A stretch of DNA of 64,000 bases, taken from positions 1-64,000 of the forward strand of contig NC_081333.1 of the NCBI RefSeq assembly GCF_022539665.2. The letters run 5' to 3'. The DNA is from Daphnia carinata (Eukaryota). The stretch's first letter is position 1, and every line of letters starts with the position of its first letter. The position numbers and the translations under genes are program-made. The notes beneath the pieces were generated by a model. That model searched no databases, was not told where the DNA came from, and saw only the letters and a program-made list of their open reading frames with translations. This document shows positions 11,250 to 55,725 of this stretch, in pieces.

Positions 11250-11263
11250 GGTTATGGGCCCAG
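11250..11263 (+). promoter_or_regulatory. Primer-binding site GGTTATGGGCCCAG (Drosophila copia-type, complementary to the internal half of tRNA-iMet)
   Basis: Lies immediately after the 5' LTR; sequence matches the known half-tRNAiMet PBS of copia. Confidence 0.9.
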
Positions 11264-11287
11264 TACCTTCAACCAGTTATACTCAAG

Positions 11288-15582: not shown

Positions 15583-15796
15583 TTTCTTTTTTATTATTTT
15601 AGATGGTGGTAGAATCCATATAACAGAAGTACAACTATATATGCTATCACCATCACTGAAGCAGTATCAATTCAATTCAAAGAATCAAGAAGAAGATCTA
15701 CTCACCTCACTATTATTTGCATTATTTCTTTCTTCTCTGTTGTCTTTTTCAACTTTGAGTTTGTGTTCTTGTGTTCTCTTCCATTCTTACATGTCT

Positions 15797-15805
15797 GAGA
15801 GGGAG
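15797..15805 (+). promoter_or_regulatory. Polypurine tract GAGAGGGAG
   Basis: Directly precedes the TG of the 3' LTR. Confidence 0.9.
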
Positions 15806-16158
15806 TGTTAAGAATATCAGCCACGTCACAACGCATCGCCCACCAGATGGCACTGAATGCAATAGAGAAGCTGCCGTTCTCTACACAGCCTTCATGGATG
15901 CTGTTAAACACCTCCCCTGTCTACTTAATCATCGTCTGCTGCGCCGTCATCACGCTCTGTCTGACGGCTGCCCCTTTATCTCTCAAGTGATTTATTTCTC
16001 TAGAACTAACGCTGAGTTCACTTTCTCAATACTCACATGGTAAATATCAAATACTTCATATTGTATGTACATTGATGCAGATATGAGATTGTTAGATATT
16101 TCATGTACCTGTGCAAAGAATACAGAAGCCTCGCTCTCATATCCTTGTGTATCTAACA
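15806..16158 (+). repeat. Copia 3' LTR (353 bp)
   Basis: Direct repeat of 10903-11249, followed by the ACTGT TSD. Confidence 0.97.
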
Positions 16159-26870: not shown

Positions 26871-26970
26871 NNNNNNNNNNNNNNNNNNNNNNNNNNNNNN
26901 NNNNNNNNNNNNNNNNNNNNNNNNNNNNNNNNNNNNNNNNNNNNNNNNNNNNNNNNNNNNNNNNNNNNNN
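26871..26970. other. Assembly gap (100 N)
   Basis: Run of 100 N. Confidence 1.
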
Positions 26971-31670: not shown

Positions 31671-32827
31671 AATTTGTTTTTATGTAGACTTCATGGTTTT
31701 TGAATTATTTCAAAAATAAAAGTAGGTACGATAGAAATTTAAGGCCCGAAAAAACAATAAGCCCGACTTTTAACTAAAAAATTATTATCAATAAAAATAG
31801 ATAACTATATATGATTTAGATGCTAAATTGAACAACAATCCCGAATATGAAATTAGTTTTTATGTAGATTTTATGGTTTTTGAGTTATTTTAAATATAAA
31901 AGTAGGTACGATAGAAATTCAAGGCCCGACAAAACATTAAACCCGACTTTTAACTAAAAAATTAATATCAATAAAACTGGATAACTATAAATGATTTAGA
32001 TGCTAAATTTAACAAGAATCACGAATATGAAATTAGTTTTTATGTAGGCCTAATGGTTTGTGAGTTATTTTAAATTTAAAAGTAGGTACGATAGAAATTT
32101 AAGGCCCGAAAAACAATAAGCCCAACTTCTAACTAAAAAATTATTATCAATAAAACTAGATAACTATGTACGATTTAGATGCTAAATTTAACAAGAATCA
32201 CGAATATCAAATTAGTTTTTATGTAGACTTCATGGTTTTTGAGTTATTTTAAATATAAAAATAAGTACGATAGAAATTTAAGGCCCGACAAAACAATAAA
32301 CCTGATTTTTAACTAAAAAATTAATATCAATAAAACTAGATAACTATAAATGATTTAGATGCTAAATTTAACAAGAATCACGAATATGAAATTACTATTT
32401 ATGTAGGCCTAATGGTTTGTGAGTTATTTTAAATTTAAAAGTAGGTACGATAGAAATTTAAGGCCCGAAAAACAATAAGCCCAACTTTTAACTAAAAAAT
32501 TATTATCAATAAAACTAGATAACTATATACGATTTAGATGCTAAATTTAACAAGAATCACGAATATCAAATTAGTTTTTATGTAGACTTCATGGTTTTTG
32601 AGTTATTTTAAATATAAAAGTAAGTACGATAGAAATTTAAGGCCCGACAAAACAATAAACCCGATTTTTAACTAAAAAATTATTATCAATAAAACTAGAT
32701 AACTACATATGATTTACATGCTAAATTTAACAACAATCACGAAAATGAAATTAGTTTCTATGTAGACTTTATGGTTTTTGAGTTATTTTAAATATAAAAG
32801 TAGGTATGATAGAAATTTAAGGCCCGA
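31671..32827. repeat. 180-bp tandem repeat block (~6.4 copies)
   Basis: AAGGCCCGA...TAACTAAAAAATT at 31741, 31921 and 32101; ~2 more copies at 29314-29710. Confidence 0.95.
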
Positions 32828-34782
32828 TTCCCGACGCTGTGATGTTCGTTTTCTGTGTTGTCAGAATAAGTTTTCCTATGTTAAGCATCCGTATTTTTAA
32901 AGAAAGTGATGATGGTCCGAATCGCAGAGGAATCGTTTAATTTTCGTTTTTCTTCGTATTTCCCGAAAGAAACTAACAAATCCAATGAGAAACGAACAGC
33001 ACACAGGGTGTTGTCGAAGAGGAACACGTAGTCAAGATTCTGAGAAAAAATTTGAAATTCTAGACAATGCTCTGCAGCAATGTGTTTGTTGTAAGATTTA
33101 TTTTCTATATTGGCATAATAGAATAATTAGAAAATCATGATTTTTTTTCTTCCTTTTAGGTTTTTGACTTCGTTTAATGTTGTGGCTGAATGGACAATGA
33201 GAGATTGAATCAACAACATAACAAGCGGGCAGCTCATGGTCAAACTCATTTGGCATAAAGGTATCATTTAATTGGGAAATATTTGTTCACGTCAATACAA
33301 GTATTTGTATAGGTTTTCTTCATAGGGGCTTTAGCCACCAAACATTTTTTCTTCTTTATGGTTTGTTAGATAAGGGTGGAGGCGGCTTTAACAATTTAGA
33401 TCTAGCAGCTATTAGACTGGTGGTGTTGGCCCAGTGAATCTTATTGTCTTCAAGCTGGGTGAAAAAACAATGAGTATTTAGTTATCAAAATTACCTGAGG
33501 CATGTGCAAATATTCAAATAATTCTTTGTTGAAGTTCAGTTAGTTTCGTGCAACATCCTCACAAAAATGCAACAAGACTTAACAAATAGAGCATATAGAC
33601 GCAGTGTCGAACTGTACCAGTGAGTACCAGAGTAATGTGACAAACATTCATGATGGTGATTAATCTTCACACAGCTAACATTTAGTTGGTACTATTATGT
33701 GTTTTATAAATTTAGTTATAATTTTATTCAGCTTGTTATTTAGTGGAATATAATTTATTTCAGTTTTTCTGATGCAGTTTGGAAGCCACTTGGAGTAAGC
33801 CTTTCGTCAGTTACTCACAAAAAAAGATTGGCAAATCTAGTCCTGGAGATCACTTTTTTTGTCAAGGAAATACTGGAAATTGGTATTGAAAAGGTCATTA
33901 ACAGACAATTTTTGTATTTTATCAGTTTATTCCTATATTTAACATGGTTGTTTAGAAATGCTATTGGAGTCTAAAAGCACTTGACAAAAAACCTTTTGAT
34001 TGTTCTCGTATTAGATGGAAATTACTTGTGCAATGGTACCAATCCATAAATGAAAACAATCTATTAGACAAAAATTTATGATTGACTGATCATAATCTGT
34101 GTAAATTTATATATAATTCTAGGTATTCAACCATGGAATGACCAGCTCTCTGCAGAGTGAAAATCTACTTGACAGCGTTAAACCTGTTAAGTACCTTTTA
34201 CAAAAAATTCTGAGAATTGCAAAAGTTATGTGAACAAATTTTGTATTGGAGAAATTCTAGGTAAAATGAAAGCCATTTCACAATACAGCTGAATAGCTAT
34301 GAAACACAACCAATCCAGGAACTGAGTGTGTTGAACAACCAAACTTATCTTGGAGAGCTGCAGAAAGAGAATGGAACATTACCCTGCCAAACACCTGCTT
34401 CCAAATGGTAGTTTTAATTATTTGTTTTTACAAGGTATATTCAGTCAATTCTTCGAAAACTGTTCTTTTTCGCAGGTCAATGGCAGGGGTCTTATTCACT
34501 GTCTGATGAATTTAAGTTTAAACAAGATATTGCTTTTGATTACTTCTGCTGGTAACTTTTATATTCCTAGTTAGGATATGGCTTTCCTCAAAAAGGGTTT
34601 AAACTAACATCTAACTTTTTTTTCTTCTTCTCAAAAGAGCTGCTGAGGAAGTTAGCTAGAGTGACGTAGATGTGTCATCACAGCAGAATAACTGTAAAAA
34701 GCAAGTTCTTCAGCAAAATGAGTGCCTTGCAGTATTTACCACTATTGAACGATTTTGAGCTGATGATACCTGGTAAACCTGC

Positions 34783-35936
34783 AATTTGTTTTTATGTAGA
34801 CTTCATGGTTTTTGAATTATTTCAAAAATAAAAGTAGGTACGATAGAAATTTAAGGCCCGAAAAAACAATAAGCCCGACTTTTAACTAAAAAATTATTAT
34901 CAATAAAAATAGATAACTATATATGATTTAGATGCTAAATTGAACAACAATCCCGAATATGAAATTAGTTTTTATGTAGATTTTATGGTTTTTGAGTTAT
35001 TTTAAATATAAAAGTAGGTACGATAGAAATTCAAGGCCCGACAAAACATTAAACCCGACTTTTAACTAAAAAATTAATATCAATAAAACTGGATAACTAT
35101 AAATGATTTAGATGCTAAATTTAACAAGAATCACGAATAAATTAGTTTTTATGTAGGCCTAATGGTTTGTGAGTTATTTTAAATTTAAAAGTAGGTACGA
35201 TAGAAATTTAAGGCCCGAAAAACAATAAGCCCAACTTCTAACTAAAAAATTATTATCAATAAAACTAGATAACTATGTACGATTTAGATGCTAAATTTAA
35301 CAAGAATCACGAATATCAAATTAGTTTTTATGTAGACTTCATGGTTTTTGAGTTATTTTAAATATAAAAATAAGTACGATAGAAATTTAAGGCCCGACAA
35401 AACAATAAACCTGATTTTTAACTAAAAAATTAATATCAATAAAACTAGATAACTATAAATGATTTAGATGCTAAATTTAACAAGAATCACGAATATGAAA
35501 TTACTATTTATGTAGGCCTAATGGTTTGTGAGTTATTTTAAATTTAAAAGTAGGTACGATAGAAATTTAAGGCCCGAAAAACAATAAGCCCAACTTTTAA
35601 CTAAAAAATTATTATCAATAAAACTAGATAACTATATACGATTTAGATGCTAAATTTAACAAGAATCACGAATATCAAATTAGTTTTTATGTAGACTTCA
35701 TGGTTTTTGAGTTATTTTAAATATAAAAGTAAGTACGATAGAAATTTAAGGCCCGACAAAACAATAAACCCGATTTTTAACTAAAAAATTATTATCAATA
35801 AAACTAGATAACTACATATGATTTACATGCTAAATTTAACAACAATCACGAAAATGAAATTAGTTTCTATGTAGACTTTATGGTTTTTGAGTTATTTTAA
35901 ATATAAAAGTAGGTATGATAGAAATTTAAGGCCCGA
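34783..35936. repeat. 180-bp tandem repeat block (~6.4 copies), duplicate of 31671-32827
   Basis: Same monomers in the same variant order. Confidence 0.95.
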
Positions 35937-37482
35937 TTCCCGACGCTGTGATGTTCGTTTTCTGTGTTGTCAGAATAAGTTTTCCTATGTTAAGCATCCG
36001 TATTTTTAAAGAAAGTGATGATGGTCCGAATCGCAGAGGAATCGTTTAATTTTCGTTTTTCTTCGTATTTCCCGAAAGAAACTAACAAATCCAATGAGAA
36101 ACGAACAGCACACAGGGTGTTGTCGAAGAGGAACACGTAGTCAAGATTCTGAGAAAAAATTTGAAATTCTAGACAATGCTCTGCAGCAATGTGTTTGTTG
36201 TAAGATTTATTTTCTATATTGGCATAATAGAATAATTAGAAAATCATGATTTTTTTTTCTTCCTTTTAGGTTTTTGACTTCGTTTAATGTTGTGGCTGAA
36301 TGGACAATGAGAGATTGAATCAACAACATAACAAGCGGGCAGCTCATGGTCAAACTCATTTGGCATAAAGGTATCATTTAATTGGGAAATATTTGTTCAC
36401 GTCAATACAAGTATTTGTATAGGTTTTCTTCATAGGGGCTTTAGCCACCAAACATTTTTTCTTCTTTATGGTTTGTTAGATAAGGGTGGAGGCGGCTTTA
36501 ACAATTTAGATCTAGCAGCTATTAGACTGGTGGTGTTGGCCCAGTGAATCTTATTGTCTTCAAGCTGGGTGAAAAAACAATGAGTATTTAGTTATCAAAA
36601 TTACCTGAGGCATGTGCAAATATTCAAATAATTCTTTGTTGAAGTTCAGTTAGTTTCGTGCAACATCCTCACAAAAATGCAACAAGACTTAACAAATAGA
36701 GCATATAGACACAGTGTCGAACTGTACCAGTGAGTACCAGAGTAATGTGACAAACATTCATGATGGTGATTAATCTTCACACAGCTAACATTTAGTTGGT
36801 ACTATTATGTGTTTTATAAATTTAGTTATAATTTTATTCAGCTTGTTATTTAGTGGAATATAATTTATTTCAGTTTTTCTGATGCAGTTTGGAAGCCACT
36901 TGGAGGAAACCTTTCATCAGTTACCAATAAAAATAGATTGGCAAATCTAACAAATGGTATGCAATCGGTAACAGTTTTATTACAGTTAGAATTACTTTTT
37001 CCTAACATACATTTCAAACTCATTTTTAACACAGTTAACATATATAGTCGCATCACATGAGGGTGGGTGAGGTTTTGTTGCCCATTGCTGAAGTTGTGGG
37101 CAGTTCTTGGTCCATGTCGTAAAGGTATGTGCAGCTAGCAATCGCCCAGTATCTTCCTTTCCCATTTTCCTTTTTGGTCTTACAGTTTGACACTTTCGGC
37201 GTACATACCCCGAGGGAAAAGTGTCTTGTATTAAGTTGAGTTTAAAGCGTGGATGAAGGACCGATTTTTGTAGCGTCATCCAAAGCTATTAGCAATATGC
37301 TGTTGGGTGTCAGAATCATTTACATTATTGCCCAAACTTTGATTGTCTTCCAAAATCGTCTGCTCGATGATACTTTATTCGTGAAAATGCTTAAGCATCT
37401 TTCAGTGTTTCTCCTGTTGAAGCCGAGGCGAATAGCTGAATCACACCTATCATTTCATATTTTTTATGCCTTATCATTGTAT

Positions 37483-40400
37483 AGAAACTATGTCGGTAAC
37501 CCTTTGTTCTGTGTTCTTGTGTTTTGTTGAAACTTTCCTATGTCATTTTCAAGTGAGATTTTTATTTGTTTTTAGGTAGCTGTACTGATGTGTAAAGAAT
37601 GGTGGTTGCAGGTCATCAGAGCCATTCTTTTATACAATACTGTTCCTTTTTTATTGCTTTAATTTTTTCATTTTAGCCACTGAATGTAGCTGGAACAGAA
37701 CATGTTGGAATTTTAGCATCAGGACATCTGGCTGGTTGGACAATTAAACATCCCTCTGTGTGGACATAAACGTGTCAAGTTTTTATCTGTAGATTATTTC
37801 TGGGATAATAACTTTGTCACCAACACCGTGACTTTGAAAACTAGCAGTTGAACAGTCTTTCAATTCGAAACAAAAAGGAGTCATGGTAATTTTATGTTTT
37901 GTATACATTTCTGTATAAACTATCATTTATCTAGATTACTCAAGTGGCATGACACTATATGGCTGGTATTGGAATAGATACTGTTGGTTGTATGCAGAAT
38001 ATCTTACTGAGAAGGGGATCTACTATTGAAGGAGTATCGTGTTTTACTACAGGCTGACCAGAAGCACAAACACATTGATTGAAAATTATTATCAATTTTA
38101 AGAATTGGTAAGTGAAATAATAGTAATTATACGAAGTTGTAATAATATTCTAATGATAAGCAATTACTATGGAATTATTGTTGGGAAAAGGTGACAAAAA
38201 ATAATAATTTATGTTATAAAAATTAACAGGGTAAAAACCATTTTCTATGGTATTTGTGGTAAAGTATATTATGTATTGCTATGAATACTTGTTATCCGAA
38301 CAAATTGAAAATAATTGTACAAATTTTTATCCACCTATGTTGAAGCTTTGTTAGCTATAGGTCCCTATATCGTATCTATATATGGTCCCTATAGCTTACC
38401 AAATTGAAAATAATTGTCCTACTGTTTATCTAACTTTGTCGAAGCTTTGTAATCCATAGGTCTCTTACTTTGCTTATCTTCCAGTGATCAGGACAATGTG
38501 GGTTAGTATAACATTAAACAATTTAAAATTTATTCAAAGTCAGAACAGTTGAAATTTCAAGTAGATTGACATGTGCAGGGAATACTTGTTAATGTTTTGC
38601 AGGTACAAGAATTACACATACATATTACAACTGTATTGATAAGATTTTCGATGCTTAATAATTTCTATTTACATTCAGAAGTAACAGGTTATTAATATGA
38701 CTTAATGTACATGACTACATGATGAATACCAGCAGTGATGAAACCTAAGAGTCGCAACGAACATATAGTATGGTACTATAAATGTTTTAAATAATTAGTG
38801 ATACTTAACTGTCAATATCTCATTTGATGCAGTTTGAAAGACGGTCCGAGTAAACACTACAGCATCTACTCACACAAGGACTGCAAAATCGTCGTAAATT
38901 CAACTTAGCTGACAGGCGAATCGATCGACGACGGTGTTATAGTTGAGGTACAGTTGTGGAGGTAAGACTATGTACGAAAGTGAATATTTTGCGTCTTCTA
39001 CCGCCTTAAATACTCGATGACACGTGTCACATTATTGCTTTCCCGGAAGTAGAGTGTAGGGTAGAGAGCCCTAATTCTGAAGGTCGATAGGTTGAAGGGC
39101 AAATCTTTATTTCCAGGTGAGCCCGAGGTTATAGCCATTCCCCATCGATTGACCCTAGGTTACTTTTACTTTTTTTTTTGTTTCCAAGTGCGTAAAACAG
39201 ATGAAGAACCTCGGGCATTCACTAAAAGGAGGGGGCGAGAAAAAAAGAATCTAGAAGCTCAGTAGCTCGTTCACCTGCACGCGATGCACTAGTGTAGATT
39301 TGTTGCTGGCACTCCTCGTCTAGTGATACTTAGAACTTTCGCACGTGTACCCAGTTTTCGCAATTTGTAGATTCATCAATTACGCACGGCATCAGCACCT
39401 GGTTTTGTTTAGTTGGGTAGTACAATAAGTCTAGATGAAATAGATCATCATAGATTAAGTTAAGGATAAGTAGGTCTAAACTGAAGTTAACAGTAAGGGT
39501 ACTTAAGCGTATAACTTAAGTAAGGCGTAAGCGTAGTCCACCTCAGTTCGTTACCTTTGCACAACACTATCTTAGCCATTTTCTTTCACTGTTCTATGCA
39601 ATTGTGTACCGTAGTCGTCGTTCGTAAACCATTTTTCCACGAACATCGTACATGTCGACTTTTTCACACAATTTTCACATGAACCGCCAATCCAAACAAC
39701 CTCCTGATCATTAACTAACGATTAATAATCGATTTCTTTTTCCAGGAAATTTTTATCAAATGTAACTGTAATTTGTGTATCTGATCCTGTTAGAATTAAG
39801 ATAACACTGATTGTTGATCAAATATTCAAAAATTTTGTTTGTTTTTCTTTTTCTTTTGTACAATCAGGAGGGTAATCTTTCGGGGCTGAAGAGGACACTG
39901 GACAATGAGGATCGCCGCCGCAGCCACTCTAATATAGCCCAGGATCCTGAGGTGTTTAGTTAAAAATTCAGTATGTAACCATTTATTTTATTTTTTTTAT
40001 AAATAGATCTGGAAGGCCACATCTCCACCGAAGAGAACCGTTGGACAACGAGGGTTATCGGCAGTATCTTCTCCCAAAATTCCAATTCCAAGGTATTTAA
40101 AATATTTAAGTGCCTTACCATGTTCTATGTATTAATCTGTGTATAGGAGGGCTGGCAACACTACCGAGAAGGATTACTCGACGTCGGGGATCGCCGCCGA
40201 AGTCGCCAAGGATTGACAGGTATTACTTAAATAATTGTGATAAGTGTTTAATCGTGTTTTTTTTGTATTTAGGATGGTCTACATCACTAACGAGGTGGGC
40301 CACTAGACAACGAGGTTCGGTGTCGGAACCACCATGAATCGTCGCCCAAAATTGTGAAGTATTTAATCGAAAGCCTTAGGTTGAGAACTATGATTTTATT

Positions 40401-42001
40401 TTGTTTTTATGTATTTAGGAACGCTTCACCGCCATCGAAGAGGATGCTGGACATCGAGGATCGCCCCTAGAGTAAGAAGGTCGTCGCAATGGATGTTTCA
40501 GGTATGTTTTACACGTTGAAGTGTCTAACCATGTTTTATTTTATGTATTTAGGATGGTCCACATCTCCACCGAAGACGGTCGGCGAGGTTCGCCGACGGA
40601 GCCACCAGGATGGAGGCCCAAAATTGTCAAGTATATTGTTTAAAATTTTACCATTTTTTCACCATTAATTGATTGTTTTTTATGTGTATAGGAGGGCGTC
40701 ATCATCGCCGAAGAGGACCACTGGACAACGCGGTTCGCCGTCGGATTTACCAGGATCATCGCCCTAAATTTTCAAGTATTTAATTTAAAGTTTTAAGTTT
40801 TGCACTACTATTTTATTTAGTTTTTATGTATTTAGGAGGGCTTCACCACCATCGAAGAAGACCGTTTGGACTATGACGGTCACTGCCAAGATCTTAACTC
40901 AATATTGCAAGGTATTTGAAATTTTTAAGTGGCTTATCATGTTCTATGTATTTATCTGTGCCTAGGAGGGTTGGCAATACCACTGAGGAAGATTAGTGGA
41001 CATCGGGGATCGCCGCCGAAGTCGCCAAGGATTACCAGGTATTGCTTAATTAATTTAAAGGGTTTAATCGTGTTTTTTCTAATGTATTTAGAATGGTCCA
41101 CATCACCACTGAAGAGGGCCATTGGACAAAGAGGTATGCCATCGGAGCCACCAGAATTGTGGAGTATTCTATTGAACGTTTTAATTTCACGCTATGATTT
41201 TATTCTGTTTTTATGTACTTAGAAGGCCCCACCACCATCGAAGAGGATGCGGAAGGAACGAAGATCACCACTGGAGCAGCGAGATCGTCGCCATGGATGT
41301 TTCAGGTATTTGTTTTTCATGTGTAAATGTCTAACCATATTTTTTTAATGTATTTAGAAGGGTTCCGTCATCGCCGAAGAGGACCATTGGACGTCGTAGA
41401 TCGTCGTTGGAACAACTGGAATCGCTGCCTATCCTTGAGATTCACGCCCATTAGGTCGACGGAAAAACGATGGTACGGTTGAGTATTGCCTAATTGGCAT
41501 TCGCCTACTTTATACCGTATTATTATTTGTGTATTTTCTAATGTGTTCCCCTTATCCTTTATTCCTTACCGTTAATTTCCCTTAAGCATTACGGCTTATT
41601 CTTTTAATTTTCATTGATCACGCAATTCACTACACCTGTACCCTACGGTTCATTCACGGTTTGTTTGCTTTTTTGCACCGGGTTGGGATTAGTGTATTAG
41701 GTGATGTAGTCCAGCTTACATTGGTTTCGTGCTTCAAGTATTTAGTTGGTGCAGGTTTACTAACACTAACTGCTTCTAAAACAAATAGAACAAAATTATA
41801 AATTTATTTTATCTCTGCATACTACTTTTGAGTTGTCTAGTGGTTTGAATGATACATGAATACAAAAATAATTAATCGCGTGCAATCGGGTTGCTAACCC
41901 TGATTTGATAACCTGATAAAAACGTGATGGGGCAGTAACCCTTCTAACCTGTCCCACAGACGAGAATGAACAACCCGATAAACAAGAAACCGGTTCAAGC
42001 G
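37483..42001 (+). repeat. Left outer arm of a diverged inverted duplication (partner ~49080-53427)
   Basis: Reverse-complement matches: 37480-37700 vs 53230-53430; 38550-38880 vs 52360-52690; 38895-39870 vs 50990-52055; 41900-42001 vs 49080-49190. Confidence 0.9.
39869..41455 (+). other. Repetitive multi-exon gene or pseudogene: ~12 units of GC-rich exon plus T-rich intron (~135-bp period), Arg/Ser/Pro/Gly-rich product
   Basis: Recurrent TATTTAG|GA acceptors (40273, 40419, 40553, 40692, 40835, 40966, 41091, 41223, 41357) and GTATT donors. Exons share CCATCGAAGAGG..CTGGACAACGAGG.TCGCCG. Confidence 0.65.
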
Positions 42002-42654
42002 ATTAAACGGAAATTATGTCATTGTCTATATTTAATAATCATCTCTTTAGCACTAGTAGGTAAGGAAAATTTAATTTGCATTTTGTAATTTTTTTGCTAG
42101 TGTTTGACTGAGTGAACTTGCAGTTGTATAAAGTTATTCAAGATAACTGAAATGGTAGCCCATAAATCAGAAGAATTTTATCTGACATCTTTCTTGCGTG
42201 AACCTGTTAAGAAAAAAACCTTGTTATATCAAAGGGCACCCAATGAAGAAATTGGCTTCATTAATGAATCAAATAGTTAACATTTGCCATTTGTATGTTA
42301 GTGTTAAAATTTGACTGCATTTTCTTTTCTTCAGACTCATTGATTCTAACAAACAGCCTGGTTGCAAACTTTTACCCATTTTGTTGCCATGAATGTATCT
42401 CTGATCCAGTCTTCAACACCCACAAATGCCAAGGTACACAGATATTTCTAAGCTGAGACTGTTAATCTGAAAAAAACAACTTGCAAACCAGCTTGTTCCC
42501 TTTATAAAAAACTTGCTTTAGTCAGGTAAACTTATTTGGATTGCAAGCAATTCAAGTAAATCATTAATTATCTTTAGATTCAAGTGTTATATTGCCTTCT
42601 ATTGGTTCCCTTTGTGGGAAACATGTGTTGTGTGTGAGTAAATGCAACCCTAAC

Positions 42655-43225
42655 AGTCTTGGAGATCACTTTTTTTTGTCAAGGAAATACAGGAAATTGG
42701 TATTGAAAAGGTCATTAACAGAAAGTTTTTGTATTTTAGCAGTTTATTCCTACATTTAACATCGTTGTTTAGAAATGCCATGGAATCAAAAAGCACTTGG
42801 CAAACAACAGTTTGATTGTTCTCGTACCTGTATTAGATGGAAATTACTTGTGCAATGGTACCAACCCATTCATGAAAACAATGTATTAGACAAAAATTTA
42901 TGATTGACTGGTCATAATCTGTGTAAATTTAATATATAATTCTTACAATTCAAGGTATTCAACCATGGAATGTTGACCTCTTTTCATTGAGCTTATCTTG
43001 GAGAGCTGCAGAAAAAGAATGGAACATTACCCTGCCAAACACCTGCTTCCTAATGGTAGTTTTAATTATTTGTTGTCACAAGATATATTCAGTCAATTCT
43101 TCGTAAACTGTTCTTTCTCACAGGTCAATGGCAGGGGGGGTCTTATTCACTGTCTGAAGAATTTAAGTTTAAACAAGATATTGCTTTTGATTACTTCTGC
43201 TGGTAACTTTTATATTGCTAGTTAA
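42655..43225 (+). repeat. Diverged copy of part of the 3.1-kb unit
   Basis: Matches ~30730-31465 with an internal deletion; ORF 42998-43225 is near-identical to 31241-31465. Confidence 0.9.
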
Positions 43226-44554
43226 GATGTGGCTTATATTATGAAATTTTTCAATTGTATTGATAAGATTTTTTATGCTTAATAATTTCTATTTACATTC
43301 AGAGTAGCAGGTCAGTAATGTGCATTAACATACATGATTTCAGGATGAATACCAGCAATAATGAAACCTAGCAGACACAGTGAACGTACAGCATGGTACT
43401 GTAAATTTTTAAAATAATAAGTGGTACTTAACAATTTTCAATTCCTCATTTGATGCAGTTTGAAAGGCAGCCAGAGTAAACACTTCAGCACCTACTCACA
43501 CATGGACTGGTAAATAATTGTTCCTTAAAGTAATGGAATACTATTGGTAACAGTTTGATTTAATTAAGAATTAGTTTGCTAACATAGCTTTAGAACTAAT
43601 TAAATCGAAGTTGAGATATCCTCTTATTTTCTACAATTAAAGAAGATAATGAAGCTAGTTAGCATAAATTCATCTTACCTGATAGGCGAATCGATCGACG
43701 ATGGTGTTATAGTTGTGGTATATCTGTAGAGTTAAGACGTAAGAATTAAGAGTTAAGAATATTATTACCATAAATTCATTCACCATTAATTATTTTGTTT
43801 TTCATTTGTTTAGGAGGGCGCCATCATCGCCAAAGAGGGGCTACTGGACAACGTGGTTCACCGTCGGATCCACCAGGATTATCACCCAAAATTGTTAAGT
43901 ATTTAATCGAAAGTTGTAAGTTTTACTCTTGGCTTTTGAATTATGATTGTATTTGTTTTTATGTATTTAGGAGGGCCTTACCACTATCGAAGAGGGTGCT
44001 GGGTATCGATGATCGTCGTTGGAAAAACAAGATCGTCGGTATGGATGTTTCAGGTGATAAATCTGGTGATGGTTCAGACCTTTTAGTTGTGAATAGTAAA
44101 ATGTATAAGTTGACATTTAGATAGGAGTCTGTTACTATACATGGGTTTACATTAATCATAAAATGCGTTATAAATTTTTTTATATCAAGTAAAGAAACAT
44201 AGTAATTAACTGAAATGTAATGTGGGTTTTTTATTACAAAGGATGTGATAAATTTATTATTATTAAATAAATTATTATAAATTGAATAACGATCGTTCCA
44301 AATTCTTACTACACAAGAAAATAACATTGCACTTAAAAATATTAAAATTAACGAGTGCTATTTCGTTATTCATATTTGCATCATTGTACACATGATGTGA
44401 TTTCTTTATTTTGGGAGTCGATCCTGCGGCCTTTAGCGTTCCATCCCGATACTCTACACATGAGTCATCTTCGACATCTAAAATTTTGACGTATCTATAA
44501 GCGTACACCGTTATCCTAAGTTAAATACGAGCACAGAAAGAGCTGCTATTTTAT

Positions 44555-44625
44555 CCATCAATGGCTCAGTGGTAGAGTACTGACTTCGTATGTCAAAGGT
44601 CCTTGGTTCGACTCCGAGGATAAGC
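44555..44625 (+). pseudogene. tRNA-like module (Thr-like CGT anticodon position), acceptor stem unpaired
   Basis: A box TGGCTCAGTGG, D arm, CTGAC-TTCGTAT-GTCAA, and T arm CTTGG-TTCGACT-CCGAG. Confidence 0.75.
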
Positions 44626-44699
44626 GTGGTGTAAATTAATGTGCAGAAAAGTCTTATATTATTTGAAATACAATATTCATATAACTATCATTACAATCT

Positions 44700-44770
44700 C
44701 CACCAACTTGGAGTTGAACGCTCATCGCTTCAGTTGCAACACTGCTCCTCTACCACTGAGCTACCATTGA
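44700..44770 (-). pseudogene. tRNA-like module
   Basis: Minus strand reads TAGCTCAGTGGTAGAG...GTTCAACTCC (A and B boxes at tRNA spacing). Confidence 0.65.
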
Positions 44771-45259
44771 CACATTACATCTCAATGACTATTCCAAGCC
44801 ACTAAATTAACTACCTCCAAACTAGCATACGTAAAATGGCCCTAAAAATCGAAATGATGTTAAAATGTAAAGTACTTGCGTCTGAATTCTTAGAGCTGTG
44901 GTTCAAATCCTAGACAAACCAAAAAGAATAATGCAATTCGGAATCAATGGTTCGATTCAATGGTAGCAGTTGCCCTTACTCTAGTGTGAGATATGTGATT
45001 CAACTCCCACAGCAACAACCTGAACGGTAAATGAACTTTAGAGGAAGATCAAGGTGGAACATAACTGAAAGGTACGGTAACCTTGATGGTAAATGACCTT
45101 CGAGATCTAAAAAAGTTTAATGGTAAAGTAAGTAACCTTCAGAGGAAAAGTAAAGGACGAACGTAGACGCTGAAGGTTAGGTGTTTGCCCTTGAAAGTTT
45201 TGAAGGTCGAATATTTGACCTTGAAAATTTTGAAGGTCGAATATTCGACCTTGAGATAT

Positions 45260-45547
45260 GGGATCCGGGATCCGGGATGTGGGATATGGGATCCGGGATA
45301 TGGGATATGGGATATGGGATATGGGATATGGGATATGGGATATGGGATATGGGATATGGGATATGGGATATGGGATATGGGATATGGGATATGGGATATG
45401 GGATATGGGATATGGGATATGGGATATGGGATATGGGATATGGGATATGGGATATGGGATATGGGATATGGGATATGGGATATGGGATATGGGATATGGG
45501 ATATGGGATATGGGATATAGGATATGGAATTCGGGATTTAGGATCCC
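45260..45547 (+). repeat. (GGGATAT)n heptamer tract: 32 perfect units at 45295-45518 with degenerate edges
   Basis: Direct reading of the sequence. Confidence 0.99.
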
Positions 45548-45816
45548 ACATCTCAAAAAAATTTAAGTTAAACTCTCACGTTGGAGGTCATCTGTTAGGG
45601 TTATAATTTTGTTGATAGACATTTGGACTTGACCTTCGTCATGGTTACATTACCTTTGGCTTAATCTTGGCTTTTACCTTCGCCGAAGGTTATTTGCCGG
45701 TACGATACGGTCATTTACTGTGGGACTTGAACCACATACGTCGTGTAACTCACTTTGAGTAGGGCAGCAGCTGCCATTGAATGGTATTATTTAATTCGGT
45801 TTTCAATTAGTTACAT

Positions 45817-45886
45817 TGGTTGGTCTGGGATTTGAACCACAGTACAATGTATTCAAACGCAAGCACTTTACCGTTGTGCCATGACT
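45817..45886 (-). pseudogene. tRNA-like module (mirror of ~44850-44920)
   Basis: Minus strand reads TGGCACAACGGTAAAGTGC...GGTTCAAATCCC. Confidence 0.55.
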
Positions 45887-45978
45887 TGCTTGTAATCAAC
45901 ATTTCGATTTTTAGTGCCATTTTACATATGCTACCTTGGCGATAGTTAATTTAGTGTATTGGAGGAGTAATAATAATG

Positions 45979-46050
45979 TCAACGGTAGCTCAATGGTAGA
46001 GGAGCAGCATTGTAACTGAAAGGTTGAGAGTTCAACTCCCAGTAGGTTAG
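45979..46050 (+). pseudogene. tRNA-like module (mirror of 44700-44770)
   Basis: TAGCTCAATGGTAGAG...GAGTTCAACTCCC. Confidence 0.65.
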
Positions 46051-46153
46051 GTTTTACACTGAAGTACGTAAACTTGAAAATGATTTTTTATAATTTTCTA
46101 TCCAGGGGAATTCAACAGTTTCACATGGTACAAATTACGAATTATTAACATCA

Positions 46154-46224
46154 TACCTACCTCGGACTCGAACCAAGGACCTTTGAAATACCAAGTCAGT
46201 ACTCTACCACTGAGCCATTGATGG
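46154..46224 (-). pseudogene. tRNA-like module (mirror of 44555-44625)
   Basis: Minus strand reads TGGCTCAGTGGTAGAGTACTGACTTGGTATTTCAAAGGTCCTTGGTTCGAGTCCGAG. Confidence 0.75.
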
Positions 46225-46899
46225 TTATTCATCATAAAAAAACATTCGTGCAGCTCCATTTGTGTGCTCGTATTTCACTTAGGTTAACACTGTATGCTAA
46301 TCAATACGTCAAATTTGTAAATGTCGATGGTGGCACATATGTAGAGTATCGGCATGGGAAGCTATAGGCCGTAGGATCGAGTCCGAAAACCAAAAATTTG
46401 ACGCCATGTATGACATGATGTAAATGTAAATAACGTAATAGCATTGTAAATGGTTTTGTAAATATTGATACGTGCAGTAATATTTTTTGACATAATGCAG
46501 CAATTAGTTATTTATTTGCAGTTTCCAGATAAATTTATCACAACCATTGTTATAATAACCACGTTACATTATTTCAATTAAATATTATGTATAAATTACT
46601 GAACTTCTTACAGTATATTTTTATGACGAATTTTATGGTTAAAATAAACCCATCTATCTCCACTTTCTGAATAGCGGCTTATTAGGAAAAGCTTATTATT
46701 GCTTTGTTTTTTTACGTATTATTTTTATTCCGCGGGGTATCATATATTTTCCGTGGGCTGGTGTATTAAGTAAACCCAATCGGAAAGGAATATTAAAGGA
46801 ATATGAATACAACCTATCACGTAAATCAAAATAAGAAAACTAAACCAGTATACTTTTCCCCAGACTTACAACACTATAATCCCTTATTGAATTATCAAT

Positions 46900-49020
46900 C
46901 CGCATTTTTTGAAACATACTTCATTGCCTAGCCTTTAACTACGCACTTGTAATGTTTTCCCAACGCTCTATCTTATAGGCTATTGGTGTTAGATCATCTC
47001 TCCTTCACTTACCATTTCTTCAAATTCATGGCAATATATCTCATTCTCCCACATTCCAATGCCCAGTTCATTCAATGACTGTTATTCTGGTCTATCTGTA
47101 AAAAAGCATTAATCACATCAATACATAACATTTCCAACAATATTTGGGCAATAAATGTACGTCTGCTGATATGTTGAACCTATTACACGAAGCTAAATTC
47201 CAGATGTGCTGCAATCTAATTTGTATAGTTAAGCCAGGTTTACCAAGTGTTAATCCGCCTCATTCGTGTTATCGAATACCATCGCGATTCTTTAACTACA
47301 TTCAGAATAGCAACATAGTACCATGAATAAAACCTATTTTTAAAAAAAAAGGTTTAAAAAATCGTGTCCGTAATTTTTGTTTTTTACTGAGAGGTTGAGG
47401 TTGAGTAGGTCAGTCCTTCTGCACATTAAATTGGATTGAAATTCTTCTGATTCCTCGACAAAATAGTCAAGGTGGCCGGCCATCCATTGATCGTCACAAG
47501 GCTGTAGTGTTTGGCCACGATGCGGACATTATATACAACAAGACGTATTCGGTAACATTCCACTTTTTCTCGCCATCCTCATTAACTTATGTAAAAAGAA
47601 CTTACTTGTACATTTTTCTCTATTATAGATGTGATTTACTGCACTGACCTATGTTAATGATATCAGTTGCCGGGATGGGGGTCTCTCCCTTCGCCATACT
47701 AGTTGGTACTATTGACAGCGTGTCAGCGAAACATCACTTCGACAACAACCAACAATTGCAGAAACTCTTTCTCCTGGATCACTGTTGTGTTGTACATGGC
47801 TTGATTATGTTAACAAATGTAGAGATATAATACCTGTTCTTGTCAACATCTATCAGGAATCTACACAACGATGAATAATTCACCAACATTTCCTCTCCAC
47901 CTTCCCACGCTTAATAAGACGGATGGAACAATGTTAAAGTATTCCTACATGAAAATATTCAATTTAAGACTGAGCACATCTTTCTCTAAAAACAAATCTG
48001 ACACTTATCTTTTTCAAACTGATCTGAGTGCAGATGCAGAAGAAACAATCTCATTCGTTTCAAGATAAGCTCCACCTGTTCACTGGTATTAGAACATAAG
48101 AATTGCATGACAGAATTATTTGGCATTAAAACCAAAATTAATAAGTCTTACATTTTCTAGCTTTTCCATAGAATCAATGGTCTTGAACAGAAGTTCATGG
48201 AGAATGTCTGCAGCTTCAGCAACTTTACCCTATTTCTCTTGTATTATGACAACAAAATATGTATCAGCCTCGATCCACTCCAACATAATGCGAAAATAAA
48301 ATATTTTATGTAAAAAAGAATAACAAAAACAAAGACCAAATTCATGTGCACCTTTCTATCAGGAACAGTTCTGAGTGTCAAATCCAGTAATCACAGATTA
48401 GTACATTCGTATCCACAACTCATGACAGGGTGGAGGTCTCTCCCATTCGCCATACTAGTTGGTACTATTAGACCCGAAGCTTTTAGCTTGCTCCATCATT
48501 AGTTCTACCTTAGGGTATTTTCTTGATAAGGTGCCACTTCTTAATTCCGAAACTGATCTGCACAATCGGTTCCAAGATGCACCTTGCTGAAATGGTATCT
48601 ACCTGTAAGCAAAGCATAGGATCAAGTAAGATACAAAAAGATACAGAAATTCAACTCACAGGTCTTGTATGTTTTTCAAAATCAAGGAGAATTTCTATGA
48701 CTTCGTTTAAATTCTCTTCTGTGGTCAAGGCTTTACAGGTTGGTGTCCTGTCGTCGCCATGTTTAACTATAATCCCCTTTAATTTTAACGATGCGACGCT
48801 CGTGAGTGGTCTTTGAAGCTGTCATATCTTTGCGTTCGCTACACGTCTTCAAGATTCTGAAGTTACCAAAGCTAGATTAAATGCCAAATAAAACTTCGCC
48901 AAAATGAAATTATCAAATATATATACCGGTATTTCTGGTTTGCTTACAAACTTTCTGCGCATACAACACTGAGCTTCATGTGCACTTGTGCAGACATGTA
49001 AGACAGCGTTGCAAAGCATC
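46900..49020 (-). pseudogene. Degenerate multi-exon gene of unknown family
   Basis: Exon-like blocks bounded by minus-strand splice signals, with in-frame stops; an internal duplicate (AATAGTACCAACTAGTATGGCGAA on minus) at ~47690-47713 and ~48446-48469. Confidence 0.35.
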
Positions 49021-49599
49021 GAATTGGTAAAAGGAAACGGGAAGGTTAAGGAAGAAAGACTAGGGTCAGATTCACAGCCCCGCTTCGATCGGGTCGGGTT
49101 TTGTTAAGCGGGTTGTTCATTTCCGATTATGGGGCAGGTTAAACGGGTTATTACCCCATCATGTTTTTACCGGGTTGTCAATCATCGTACGCTAACCGAT
49201 CACAAGCAATTGTTTTAGTATTCCTATTTTTCAAGTCAACATTCAATATTCAAAATACAACAGTAAGTTATTTTGTTTTACTTTTCTTTTAAAAGCAGTT
49301 AGTGTTTTGCAAACCTGCAGCAAACAAATACTTGACTTGTAACCTATGTAAGTAGGGGCTACATTACCTAAACCACTAATCCCAACCCGGTGCATTAAGT
49401 CGAATACAAGCCGTGAACGATCCGTGCAGTGCAGGTGTAGTGAAATTGTGTGCTCAGTGAAAGATAAAATCATAAGCAATAATGCTGTGAGGGAAAATAA
49501 TGGGAGGGAAAAAGGAACGAAGCATCTATCAATCAAACAAATCACAATACGAAATAAAGTAAGTGAAAGCCAATTTGGCAATACTCAACCGTACCATCT

Positions 49600-50998
49600 T
49601 CATTTCCATCGTCCTAATGGGCGTGAATCTCGGGGCTGGGCGACGACCCTCATTCCTCGAACGACGATCCACGGCGTCTAGTGGTCCTCTTCGGTGGTGG
49701 CGAGGCCCTCCTATATACATAAAAATAAACTATGGTTAAACACTAAATAAAAAAAAATATATACCTGAATATCCGTGGCGACGATCTCAGTCCTCTTCGG
49801 CCTCCAGCGTCCTCTTCGATGGTGGTAGGGCCCTCCTAAATACATAAAAACAAAGTAAGATCATAGTGTAACACTTAAAATTTACAAATAAATACTTGAC
49901 AATTTTGGGCGACGATCATGGTGACTCCGAAGGCGTCCTACATCCTTTTCAATGGTGGCGAAGCCCTTCTAAAAACATAAAAACAAAATAAAATCATAGT
50001 CATACGTAAAACTTAGAACTTTCAATTAAATACTTTATAATTTTGGGCGAAAATTATGATGCCTCCGACGACGAACCTCGTTGTCCAGTGGTCCTCCTTA
50101 GCGATGATGGAACCCTCTTAGATACAAAAAAAAAACATGGTTAGACAATTAAACGTGTAAAACATATACCTGAAACATCTATGACGACGATGTTGGTGCT
50201 CCAGCATCCTCTTCGGCGTCCAGCATCCTTTTCGGCGTCCAGCATCCTTTTCGGCGTCCAGCATACTCTTCGGCGTCCAGCATACTCTTCGGCGTCCAGC
50301 ATACTCTTCGGCAGTGGTGAGGCCCTCTTAAATAAAAAAAAAAATGATTAAGCACTTAAACGTTTTTTAAAAAATACCTCAATACCCGAGCCGACACTCT
50401 CGTTCCTCCAGCGGCGATCCTCGATGTCACGCATCCTCTTCGATGGTGATGTAGCCCTCCTAAATTCATAAAAACAAAATAAAACCATAGTTCAAAACTT
50501 AAAACTTTTAATGAAATACTTGACAATATTGGGTGACGATCAAGGTGGCTCCGACGGCGAACCTCGTTGTCCGTTGGTTTTCTTCGATGATGTGGACCAC
50601 CCTAAAAACATAGAGAAAAACGATTAGACATTTAAAATTGTTAAAGCAATATCTGGTGACCCTTGGCGACTTCGGCGGCGATTCCCGACGTCCAGTAATC
50701 CCTCCTCGGTAGTGTTGCAAGACCTCCTAGGCACAGATAAATACATAGAACATGGTAAAACACTTAAAATTGTTGAATACCTTGCGATATTGGGCTAGGA
50801 TTCTGGCGGTGACCTTCGTTGCCCAGCGGTCCCCCTTCGGTGGTGATGTGGCCCTCCTAGATATATAAGATTTAAAACAAATACATAGTTAGATACTAAA
50901 TTTTGTATTATATACCTCGGAATCCTGGGCGATATTCCAGCGGCTGCGGGGCTATCCTCGTTGCCCAGTGTCCTCTTCGGCCCCAGAGATTGCACTCC
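49600..50998 (-). other. Second copy of the exon/intron-repeat gene
   Basis: Repeated CCTCCTAAATAC/ATACC(T) splice signals on the minus strand; the first exon (..KRTLGNEDSP) is homologous to the exon at 39869. Confidence 0.65.
50201..50312. repeat. 19-bp minisatellite, ~6 copies
   Basis: CCAGCATCCTCTTCGGCGT in tandem, with minor variants. Confidence 0.95.
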
Positions 50999-53900
50999 TG
51001 TATGTAAGGAAGGGACAAAAAATAAAAAAAAATAAAATTTTTTTTTTTAATATTTGAACAGCACCATGTTTCATCTTAATTCTAACAGGCATCAAGTACA
51101 CAAATTACAATTACATTGGATAACAAGTTCCTGAAAAAAGAAATTGTTTATTAATAGATAAAGGGTCAGGAGGTTGTTTGGATTGGGTATTGCTTGTTCA
51201 TGTGTAAACTGTGTGAATTCGAAACATACAAATGTTCGTACAAAAATGATTAGCAAACGACTACGGTAAATAGTTACATAAAACAGTGGAAGAAAATGGC
51301 TGAGATAGTGTTGTGCATAAATAACGAAGTGAGGTGGACTACGCTTTACGCCTTACTTAAAGTAGCCTTAATTTTAACTTCAGATTTACTTATCCTTAAA
51401 CTTAACTTTAGATTTACCTATCCTTAACTTAATTGTAGATTTACTTATCCTAAACTTAATCTACGTTTATCTATTTCATCTAGACTTATCGTACTCCCCA
51501 TCTAAAACAAAACCAGTGCAGAGGCTAAACCAGGTGCTGATGCAGTGCGTTATTAGTGCGTAATCGATGAATCTAAAATTTGCGAGAGCTGAGAACACTT
51601 GCTAAAGTTCTAAGAATAATTAGACGTGGATTGTAAGCAACAAATCTACACTAGTGCACCGCGTGCAGGTGAAAGAGCTACTGAGCTGCTGGATTCTTTT
51701 TTTCTTCCTCTCCCCCCTCTTTTTTTGTGAATGCCCGAGGTTCTTCATCTGTTTTAGGCACTTGGAAACAAACAAAAAATCAAAGGAACGTAGGGTCTAT
51801 TGATGAGGAATGGCTATAATCTTGGGCTCACCTGGAAACAAAAATTTGCCCTTCAACCTGTCGACCTTCAGAATTAGGTCCCTCTACCCTACACTCTACT
51901 TCCGGGAAAGCAATAATGTGGCACGTGTCTGCGAGTATTTAAGGCGTCGTCTAGACGCTAGACAATCACAGTCGTCCAAAGTCTTGCCTCTACAGATGTA
52001 CCACAACTATAACACCGTCGTCGATCGATTCGCCTGTCAGGTAAGTTGAATTTATGTTAATTGTCTTCACGTTTTCTTTAATTGTAGAAAGTATGAGAGT
52101 AACAATTACGAATAAATTAGTTCTAAATCTATGTTAGCCACCTATGGTATACAAATGTACCACAACTATAATACCATCGTCGATCGTTTCGCTTGTCAGG
52201 GAAGTTGAATTTATGTTAACATGCTTTGTTGTCTTCTTTAATTGTAGAAAGAAAGAAAATATCAACTTCCATTAAGTTAGCTCTAAATCTATGTTAGCAA
52301 ACTAATTTTGCATGAATTCAAACTGTTACCAATAGTACTCTGTTTCTTTAGGAAATAACGATTGTTCAGTCCTTTTGCGGGTAGGTGCTAAAGTGTTTAC
52401 TCTGGCTCCCTTTCAAACTGCATAAAATGAGGAATTGAAAATGTATCACTAATTATTAAAAAATTTATAGCATCATACTGTATTCATTATATCTGCTAGG
52501 GTTCATCATTACTGTTATTCATCCCGAAATCATGTACGTTAGTACACACTACTGACCTGCTACTCCTGAATGTAAATAGAAGTTATTATTAAGCATTGAC
52601 AATCTTGCCAATCTTTTCTTATTTTAATCACTTGCAAAACACTATTAAAAAATATCCTCTGCACATGTGAATATACTTGATAATTTGAATGCCAAAAAGC
52701 CAAAACCAGTAACCACTGAGCATTCAAATGTGTTAGTACATCTGATCAGTAACAACACGATCAGAAGGCCTAGAAACATAAAATATAACACAATATAGAA
52801 AATAAAACATTACCCAGAAAACTAAACAATCTGTGTTAACAAACACTAACATTGCAATAATTCATATTAAATATTTATTAAGTGTCAAATTCATAATTTA
52901 TTTAATGTAATTTAAAAGTACAAAAATGGGAAAATTTTCACCTACATTTTGATTAATTCTTGTTAGAAGTCTGGGCAGCTATAATGCCATGTAGAATACA
53001 ATCATTCAATGTTCATTGTTGCTAGTTAAAAATATTATACTCAGCCGAATTATTCTGAGCATTGTTATCGCTGAAAAACTGCTGCAAAAATGTGTTTGTA
53101 ATTCTGGTCAGCCTGTAATAAAACATAACAATATACTTAAAATATAACAATTAAATATAGTAATGAATATATAAAAAATAAAACTAGATATAGCAAGCCA
53201 AATTTCTTATAATTACCATTCCAATATTTCATATTCCAGCTACATTCAGCAGCTAAAAAGACAATTTATAATAAAAATGGAACAGGACTGTATAATAGAA
53301 TAACTCTCCTGCCCTGTAACCACCATTCTTTACACATCACTACAACTATCTAAAAGCAAAAAAAAATCTCACTTGAAAATGACATGGAGAAGTTTTAACA
53401 AAACAATAGGGTTACCTATATAGTTTCGTCACCGTCATCGCTCGCTCCTAAAATTGTCTTCGCCTCTACATTTCGATCAAATCCTGTTGGAAGACTGGGC
53501 ATCCATAATAACATGGAGAAAACTATAGATTTACTGACCACATCTTGATGTTCATTGCTTCTAGTTAAGAATTTGAAACAAACCTGGGCTTAAGTTCCTT
53601 TTTTCTCCACTTTTCTTCTCTTGGCTTAGCTTGTTTTCAGGATTCTCATTCAACGGTAGACGTTTGCTTTTGAATGCTGCAATCAAATTATTACAATAAA
53701 GATTTTCTTGGGCTACCATTGTTTGAAACACCAATCCCTTTCAGCAAATACCCAGCTTCACCATCCTTCTCCTAATATGACATTTCAGATTCAGTTATAA
53801 TCACAAGACAGTCAATTTATATTAACATATTAAATTTAGATAAATTTCCAAACTAACCTCAGGCCGAGAATTTTCCCAACAATGTATTGTTCATAGTCCA

Positions 53901-55725
53901 CGTCACTGAGCGGAAATGAAGCCTGATTTGACACTTTTTTCCTTCATTATTTCAGGCATGACAAAAATCACTTGGATTAGGAAGGCTACGGCGGACGGAT
54001 CCACATTTTAAAGCTCACCTTGCTTATACTGGATGTTTATTCAGAGAAGAAAACTGCCCTTTTGAATGCCCTGCTTCATTTTTGTCTGACAAGAGATGGA
54101 AATAAACAGCATTTCTCAGACAGGCCAATAAACGGAAATTCCTTGTAGGAATCTACGAATTAAGTTATACGTTAACCCTAACCTATGTTAAGTTACCGGA
54201 TATTTTTTTTTTCTTACCTCTTGACTAAAAATTTTGCGCCCGAATGAAGAAAGACCTTTTCTTTCTTGTCAGTTAAGCGCCAGAAAATTCCTTATGCCTT
54301 GTTGTCATACTTTTCCAAATAAGCCGTAATGCGACATGAAAGCAGTAGTCGGCCCTAAACACCTGACTGGCTGTGATTCGGGGCTCACCACCCTCCCCCA
54401 TGCCTGGAATGGGCCAATCACGGGATGACAGGGAGACATTTTCTACAACGGGGCGGTGGCGGGGCTCAGTTCCTGGGTCACACCGATAACCCTGTCGTCA
54501 TTTTAGAAGATGGCGGATTCAATGAAAGTGACAATTGTTGAGTGAGAATTTACAATTTGACTAAAATTACTAATTCTTAAGACTTCACTTAGGTTGATGC
54601 CTCAGTAATTAACTAAATTCCTGAATTTGGATGTATATATTGCCAATGATATAATCTGCATTCTTGAAAATATTTGCCAACACAGTTTTCTGCTGTCTAG
54701 TAAATGTTAATGAAAACTTAAATGTTTGAATCTCCTGGGTGACAACCATACTCAACTTATTCATGTGCCAAGTAAAAATTACCTTTTCTGCTTTTGAATA
54801 ATCTAACTTCTACAAAGAAAGGATTGATGTTAATTAAGATTTTACTAGGAGATGCATGGTGTCAATGCTTGGAAGTAACTCACCCTAAATTGATCGTAGC
54901 CTACAGACTAAGAATGGTTGACACTTCCCGAAATGCAAATCAAGACAGCAGGAAATAGGGTTTCACATGAAAATGACTCAAAATAATGGTAGCTGGTAGT
55001 TTTAGGCAAGAGCAAAATTCGTATTTGCAGCAAATGGTAAGCAATTGTCTTGTATCCAATGATACAACACTTTTATTAAGATTTTTGTGTGCAACGTTAA
55101 ACATAGTTCTTTTATTTTACTTACCAACACTTTCAATGCTGTTGGATTGCAGTTTGTCTTTGTAACTTTTGTTACTGTTCATTGAATTGAGGCTGGTAAA
55201 ATCATGTGTCAGGAATACATAAGAAATAAAAATGCTTAACATCGAACGTTTGCCAAGTTAATGATTTAATTCTACCTATTCTTCCATTCCGCTTATTCAC
55301 TATCTACAATGCTGCAGGATCTCTCTACTTCTGGATACATAGCAAACTGATAAATTTTGACGTTGTAAACGACAGAATTCCTCACCAGAGGGATTAGGTA
55401 GCAACCCTCACCAGAGGGATTAGTTGGCAACCCTCAAGGACCTTGTGCTGTGCTATTGTGGTTTAACGTGCCACATACTTTAGTGCTGGTAGATGAAGTT
55501 CTGCATGACATAATGGAACGCTTCCGTGCTACGAGGGAAAATGAGTTTCGGAATACATCCTTGTTTATAAAGAAAACCTCTAGTCAAACTAAACAGCAAC
55601 AAAGGGTTGTTAATAATTAATAACGAATTACTTGACGAAAAAAAACCATAAAGAAAAAAACGAATCATCACTGAATACAAGTGAGAACATTAGAAATTGA
55701 AGAGTAACGGGAAAAGAATTGAATA

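Follow-up and report, generated by a model that had tools for sequence, protein, structure and literature searches.

Anatomy of the locus

The window (the whole 64-kb stretch of DNA that was analysed) contains, from 37.5 to 53.4 kb, inverted blocks of 68-82% identity arranged around a G-rich tract, (GATATGG)x39, the sole such tract in the window (Table 1). The sequence is eukaryotic: most of 4.8-29.3 kb is taken up by satellites with 70-bp and 141-bp units, 29635-36949 holds repeats of a 3.1-kb unit at 99.4% identity, and host-like genes are present from 55.7 kb. The homolog cluster of a MYND gene, at 34% identity, includes a Daphnia pulicaria protein, which suggests a cladoceran-like host. 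Several smaller features accompany the satellites: an intronless ankyrin-repeat ORF of 476 aa (2994-4424) in an A-rich stretch adjoining them, a full-length copia element (10903-16158; open frame of 1363 aa at 11491-15582; LTRs 98.3% identical) inside the 70-bp satellite, and a 100-N scaffold gap (26871-26970) between the 70-bp and the 141-bp satellites. The 3.1-kb unit itself contains 180/359-bp subrepeats, together with segments that share homology with 42655-43235 in the left arm.

Towards the axis, both arms present the same order of features: spliced but decayed genes, an AATAAA (at 44266 on the left and 46516 on the right), a battery of five tRNA-derived units, a cluster of AAGGT motifs and a 15-mer that opens the G-rich repeat. 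This anatomy fits the original prediction, in which the units were carried by an element around its end. The left battery-bearing copy (~42.6-45.25 kb) is without the gene found at 46.7-49.1 kb in the right arm; on the right side, family-like cover by contigs of run X1 extends to ~54.6 kb. The AAGGT motif is about 20-fold enriched near the end, with 14 occurrences in 416 bp versus 47 in 27,310 bp, and the left cluster ends in two tandem palindromic units of 30 nt (~45197-45254, fold z -9.4), which are absent on the right. The cluster would resemble half-sites of FTZ-F1/ERR-type nuclear receptors and, just as much, the subterminal repeats of transposons. The join is lopsided, with 39 heptamer units on the left and fewer than two on the right, and variant units occur at the left start of the tract and near its right junction. 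No copy of the 15-mer was found at the outer arm ends within the window. A single TTAGG, which is the telomere unit of Daphnia, sits inside a 5-bp inverted repeat (45533-45547) at the junction, although one unit may be due to chance.

Table 1. Features of the two arms and the axis (window coordinates).
Feature	Position	Strand	B box	Remarks
Left arm	37520-45254	+		mosaic of two partial repeat-family copies
M0 left	44404-44474	-	44414-44424	tRNA-derived A/B-box unit
M1 left	44555-44625	+	44605-44615	best-kept; Rfam tRNA 36 bits, model positions 8-63 only
M2 left	44700-44770	-	44710-44720	relic acceptor stem (6/7 pairs, 4 G-U), arms decayed
M3 left	44850-44920	+	44900-44910	5' half of A box gone via 17-nt indel; B box intact
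M4 left	44947-45017	+	44997-45007	most degenerate unit; A at position 53
Left AAGGT cluster	45020-45254			10 motifs, both orientations
Left 15-nt end motif	45252-45266	+		common to both arms
G-rich heptamer tract	45255-45527	+		(GATATGG)x39
Right 15-nt end motif	45541-45555	-		1 mismatch vs left; T7 run precedes on own strand
Right AAGGT cluster	45560-45710			4 motifs
M4 right	45713-45783	-	45723-45733
M3 right	45818-45888	-	45828-45838	A box whole
M2 right	45979-46049	+	46029-46039
M1 right	46154-46224	-	46164-46174	ARAGORN tRNA-Thr(GGT); Rfam 31.5 bits, positions 8-63
M0 right	46324-46394	+	46374-46384
Right arm	45541-53405	-		fuller copy; decayed intron-bearing genes directed at battery; outer end not found

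The mirrored layout is not supported as a designed feature. It is likely a by-product, following from two copies of a multicopy, intron-bearing segment joined end to end. A fold-back assembly artefact is rejected, since the arms share only 69-82% identity; a mis-join may have occurred through the simple repeat at the axis.

The multicopy nature of the segment is apparent in run X1, in which 536 contigs fall on the right arm (74, 91, 195 and 176 at 99% identity or more, 95-99%, 90-95% and under 90%, respectively) and 379 on the left arm (30, 47, 132 and 170 in the same classes). These counts come from one run of one study and may be inflated by alleles and errors; run X2, from the same study and the same sample, gave no contigs. 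Most of the X1 contigs are below 95% identity; hence, each arm has variants that resemble it more closely than the opposite arm does. The cover skips both batteries (bins 44384-45250 and 45530-46537), which carries no evidential weight. Joints in these contigs were compared with splice signals for 28 of the 30 listed, a further 184 being present: a strong GT-AG pair lies no more than 12 nt away in 15 of the 28, versus 33% of random joints, and two of the joints are exact. Among the joints of 57-79 nt, 10 out of 12 belong to the GT-AG-supported ones. X1, even if labelled 'DNA?', likely holds spliced RNA of family members. On the host side, a 4030-nt X1 contig without differences ends at the minus-strand splice donor 55124 (55124-55600), and a deep joint links 55407 to 53388 (55380-55436), so that exons on the host side seem to be spliced into repeat sequence.

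No Pfam match above the cut-off was obtained for 224 of the 250 stop-free stretches of at least 36 aa (the 26 omitted overlap or adjoin the batteries), which is weak evidence, the genes being decayed and split by introns. Neither an RT, Rep/helicase, transposase nor recombinase domain was detected in these 224 stretches, and no transposon class was assigned, the classes compared being Penelope/Terminon, Helitron and cut-and-paste elements. No hammerhead ribozyme was found, and Rfam over 30000-64000 gives only two tRNA matches. A broken reading of 98 residues from the right-arm gene has no relative by word search and none in viral contigs; its three HMMER matches were rejected as repeat-summed artefacts. 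No relative was found for the ORF at 37246-37527 either, and the comparison of left and right arm peptides yielded no single conserved frame. A repeated-exon gene is recognizable at 39868-41305(+), 43814-44053(+) and 49765-50997(-), with exons of 70-86 nt, short introns and a common frame of SP-x-K/R repeats, decayed by stops in both arms. Upstream of it lies the best-kept non-coding block of the arms (39002-39300 and ~51620-51946, 177 nt at 90%), which is promoter-like.

The tRNA-derived units

Five tRNA-derived A/B-box modules (M0-M4) were identified per arm, ten in total. The eight tRNA-like modules originally described are indeed present at the places and on the strands given, but the count of four per arm overlooked the M0 pair. 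All seven strict B boxes of the 64-kb window lie within 44414-46384; the arms hold three and four of them, compared to a shuffle mean of 0.015, and none of 2000 shuffles reaches these numbers. Such a clustering of B boxes above chance is a mark of TFIIIC barriers of the IR-L/IR-R type. A model built from the ten modules gives exactly ten matches at E values of 1.5e-9 or lower, which are the modules themselves by construction, and no other match below E = 1.6 in the window.

When the ten modules are aligned, the columns without variation are those of A-box and B-box residues, while the units at different positions are only 33-66% alike. The A box is whole in seven of the ten modules, and A and B boxes stand at the spacing expected of a tRNA gene: 44 nt separate position 8 from position 53 in M0-M3 of both arms (8/10 modules), whereas M4 is without tRNA spacing. 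Rfam passes only the M1 pair (2/10 modules), over model positions 8-63, that is, with the acceptor excluded. ARAGORN with default settings calls a tRNA in the right M1; its low-threshold and mitochondrial scans returned noise only (153 calls at ps70). Viral contigs scanned for the exact patterns of M1 and M2, and metagenome contigs scanned for that of M1, gave no matches, and no second battery was found in the viral or metagenome contigs searched.

Over the seven modules with a whole A box, only 17 of 49 acceptor positions pair, which is about chance and unlike a tRNA gene. The non-pairing acceptors of the original prediction are thereby largely upheld, the exception being M2, where a relic stem persists (6/7 pairs on the left, 4/7 on the right). 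This relic suggests that the units originated as complete tRNA genes, whose breakage preceded the split between the arms. In the same seven modules, pairing amounts to 23/28 in the D stem, which overlaps the A box, 16/35 in the anticodon stem and 21/35 in the T stem; in M1, the D and T stems are fully kept. Covariation over 21 cloverleaf pairs is absent across the ten modules (322 of 500 shuffles score as high), and neither the ten modules nor eight downstream stretches fold better than shuffles (z -1.14 to +1.19). TMER-like RNAs are tRNA-miRNA hybrids in which a stable hairpin follows a tRNA-like head; no such hairpin beats shuffles in any of the eight downstream stretches. The first T4 run follows the B box at a distance of 13-288 nt, or does not occur within ~390 nt. 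A terminator within 20 nt, as in a tRNA gene, is present in one module out of ten, the others having theirs at 60-288 nt or none.

One explanation for these units is that they are working type-2 Pol III promoters, either for short non-coding RNAs or because the act of transcription itself matters. Transcription from the inward M3 and M4 would then cross the AAGGT cluster and terminate where the element ends, at which point they share their first T4 run in each arm (45198 on the left, the T7 at 45555-45561 on the right). The T4 runs of M0, at +67 and +70, the A boxes with 44-nt spacing kept in 7/10 units and the fully kept D and T stems of M1 agree with this explanation. However, covariation, stable folds and downstream hairpins are all absent, the terminator distances differ between the arms for M1 (none vs. 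84) and M2 (60 vs. 13), and the region that M4 would transcribe is only ~40-60% alike between them. Working promoters are, hence, unlikely in our view. Where the original prediction left TFIIIC sites and small-RNA promoters side by side, the loss of RNA structure favors TFIIIC sites over structured small RNAs.

SINE heads were also considered, as these typically keep their A and B boxes and lose the acceptor, like the units of the battery. In addition, M4 is followed by ~170-200 nt and a simple-repeat tract, as a SINE head would be by its body and tail. Nevertheless, a pile-up of tRNA-derived SINEs is very improbable. The battery would consist of five different heads, 33-66% alike between positions, whose order and strand are fixed in both arms; no common body or tail follows M0-M3, and no dispersed copies occur elsewhere in the window. 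The absence of SINE bodies and tails, already noted in the original prediction, is thus retained: no common body was found, and the ten-way alignment reveals no shared 3' sequence. The battery fails the tests for tRNA genes and for SINEs, and what has been kept appears, from the sequence, to be promoter DNA, not tRNA.

Conservation of the boxes between the arms

A comparison of the left and right modules revealed an uneven distribution of changes. In the seven core positions of the B box, 1 of 35 is changed, compared to 4 of 20 in the four free positions and 133 of 558 in the spacers. The core thus differs from the spacers (Fisher p = 0.0016), as well as from five other arm blocks (604/3387, 17.8%; p = 0.014), in a test that rests on a single pair of copies and on modules recognised via their boxes, a bias towards finding boxes conserved. 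Four of the five changes inside the B box are at free positions. For whole B boxes, the count is 5/55 substitutions, for the A-box class 10/80 and for both together 15/135, where the deletion in M3 is counted as gap columns and not as substitutions, and the A-box class of M4 is set by offset only. All boxes together are barely distinct from the other arm blocks (p = 0.049), and no longer so when M1 is left out (p = 0.25); the module interior, with 28/154 changed, does not stand out (p = 0.16). Base composition does not explain the conservation of the boxes, since the GC-rich exons of the arms (69/318 changed) are no better kept than the introns (65/346).

The original prediction had emphasized the M1 pair, described as the outer one with 3 differences in 64 nt. 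Exactly three differences are present (44587, 44592 and 44612), but M1 is the second pair and not the outermost. Its similarity is matched elsewhere in the arms: three differences also occur in one other 64-column window (left 39035), and four in each of two more, so that M1 alone proves little. The predicted excess of conservation in boxes over flanks holds for the B-box core, which is below the spacers, but is not significant for whole boxes without M1 when these are compared with the other arm blocks. The mirror is imperfect too: the A box of the left M3 is halved, the left M4 has A53, and M4 departs from tRNA spacing. Taken as a whole, the modules and their enrichment stood up, while the module count, the clean mirror and the uniqueness of the 3/64 match did not.

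These observations bear on the possibility of a dead tRNA cluster that was captured by the repeat and is in neutral decay, its boxes seeming kept through recognition bias and patchy gene conversion. The relic acceptor of M2, the damaged boxes of the left M3 and M4, the arm windows as similar as M1 and the whole-box signal that loses significance without M1 would all be expected under such decay. On the other hand, nine of the ten B cores are intact while the acceptors pair at chance, and the changes inside the B box fall at free positions; decay at the spacer rate from perfect ancestral boxes gives p = 0.005 for nine or more intact cores. The spacers, of 11-68 nt, are moreover too short for unseen dead units inside the battery. 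Purely neutral decay is, thus, rather unlikely. Purifying selection on the B-box core is supported by this one pair of copies, so that the selected array of the original prediction would stand for the core. At least the left copy is decaying, with half an A box in M3 and a core B-box residue lost in M4.

A post hoc observation concerns B-box position 59, where three of the five pairs (M0, M1 and M4) have C in the left arm and G in the right arm, the same change in each. This pattern could result from conversion among the units of one arm or from an arm-specific preference. An arm-specific preference would suit a protein encoded by the element itself: the B-box-like and AAGGT motifs would be sites for a transposase-like end-binding protein, the tRNA origin being incidental. 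The ~20-fold enrichment of AAGGT beside the end and the presence of the left battery on a deleted derivative that retained its end are compatible with such sites. The idea is nonetheless very improbable, as the 224 stop-free stretches of at least 36 aa contain no transposase or recombinase domain, the outer sides of the arms have no matching end motif within the window, and the conserved residues are those read by TFIIIC.

A candidate TFIIIC barrier and the nature of the ends

The battery is tentatively predicted to be a TFIIIC landing pad with a barrier function, placed where a repeat of no assigned class ends, a reading to which we give somewhat less than an even chance. A and B boxes have an established role in recognition by TFIIIC, and the retention of B-box cores and spacing with loss of the fold indicates recognition of the DNA by this factor. 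The units would derive from whole tRNA genes whose acceptor stems were already broken when the two copies diverged; the boxes would then have been retained by purifying selection while the cloverleaf decayed, and the later end-to-end joining of two copies would have produced the mirror. TFIIIC bound to the cluster would maintain a boundary, with the repeat's Pol II genes on one side and the chromatin past the repeat's end on the other. The kept A boxes and spacing would be expected of genuine Pol III promoters no less than of bare TFIIIC sites.

The setting of the battery raises the question of a heterochromatin border, as far as sequence can tell. The G-rich tract lies beyond the end; satellite blocks, which end at ~36-37 kb, are 8-18 kb away on one side, and the host genes that begin at 55.7 kb are ~10 kb away on the other.

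Extra-TFIIIC (ETC/COC) sites and tRNA-gene barriers are known cases of B boxes serving as chromatin elements apart from tRNA synthesis. These consist of intact tRNA genes or lone B boxes, whereas the battery is a fixed array of pseudogenes that lack the acceptor and are carried where a repeat ends. A closer likeness is found in IR-L and IR-R of S. pombe, 2.1-kb inverted repeats that flank a 20-kb silent domain and contain five TFIIIC-bound B boxes each, with binding shown (PMC7474672). The feature shared here is the arrangement of inverted repeats with five B boxes each, for which a barrier function is proposed. Unlike IR-L and IR-R, the battery has whole tRNA-derived A+B units in mixed orientation, and its arms are 69% alike, flank a tract of 273 bp and belong to a multicopy family; TFIIIC binding is predicted.

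If the boxes are bound, the repeat would carry its own insulator made from dismantled tRNA genes, and its many diverged copies could reveal the promoter residues on which a barrier depends. The same copies could address the need for Pol III transcription, an open question for TFIIIC barriers in animals. If the boxes are unbound, the battery would be a decayed tRNA cluster in a segmental repeat, of little interest. The locus also points to a multicopy segment of no assigned class, capped by G-rich sequence, in a cladoceran-like genome. Neither a battery of this kind nor the heptamer as a telomere was found described in the accessible literature, which is no proof of novelty.

The ends themselves allow a different interpretation, with subtelomere-like arms, the heptamer as a telomere-like cap, the locus as a relic of an end-to-end fusion and the battery as a barrier to silencing that comes from the end. 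Each arm terminates in the same 15-mer, which opens the G-rich repeat, with the G-rich strand directed away from each arm, and the variant heptamer units cluster at the arm-proximal start. The inverted paralogous duplicons around the tract, the decayed spliced genes and the G-rich tandem repeat resemble fusion relics described for human subtelomeres, such as 2q13-q14 (PMC2323237). Unlike at 2q13-q14, the array is present on one arm only: the right arm brings fewer than two repeat units and no inverted array. The heptamer also differs from the telomere repeat of Daphnia, which is TTAGG (PMC4427308, PMC9498494). A fusion relic is, consequently, improbable. A broader variant is distinctly unlikely as well: the arms would represent termini of a linear or end-seeking element not described before, or else subtelomeres with a new GGGATAT telomere motif, in which five tRNA genes were domesticated as a TFIIIC barrier, followed by an array of end-binding motifs and a telomere-like G-rich cap, two such ends being fused here.

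The heptamer also exists as an ordinary microsatellite, which argues against a fusion relic. Scans identified 5 viral and 64 metagenome loci, 69 unrelated loci in all, none with a battery: a strict B box within 1.2 kb upstream of the heptamer was found in 0/69, and blastn gave no match to the window. The model built from the ten modules produced a single weak match among the heptamer loci.
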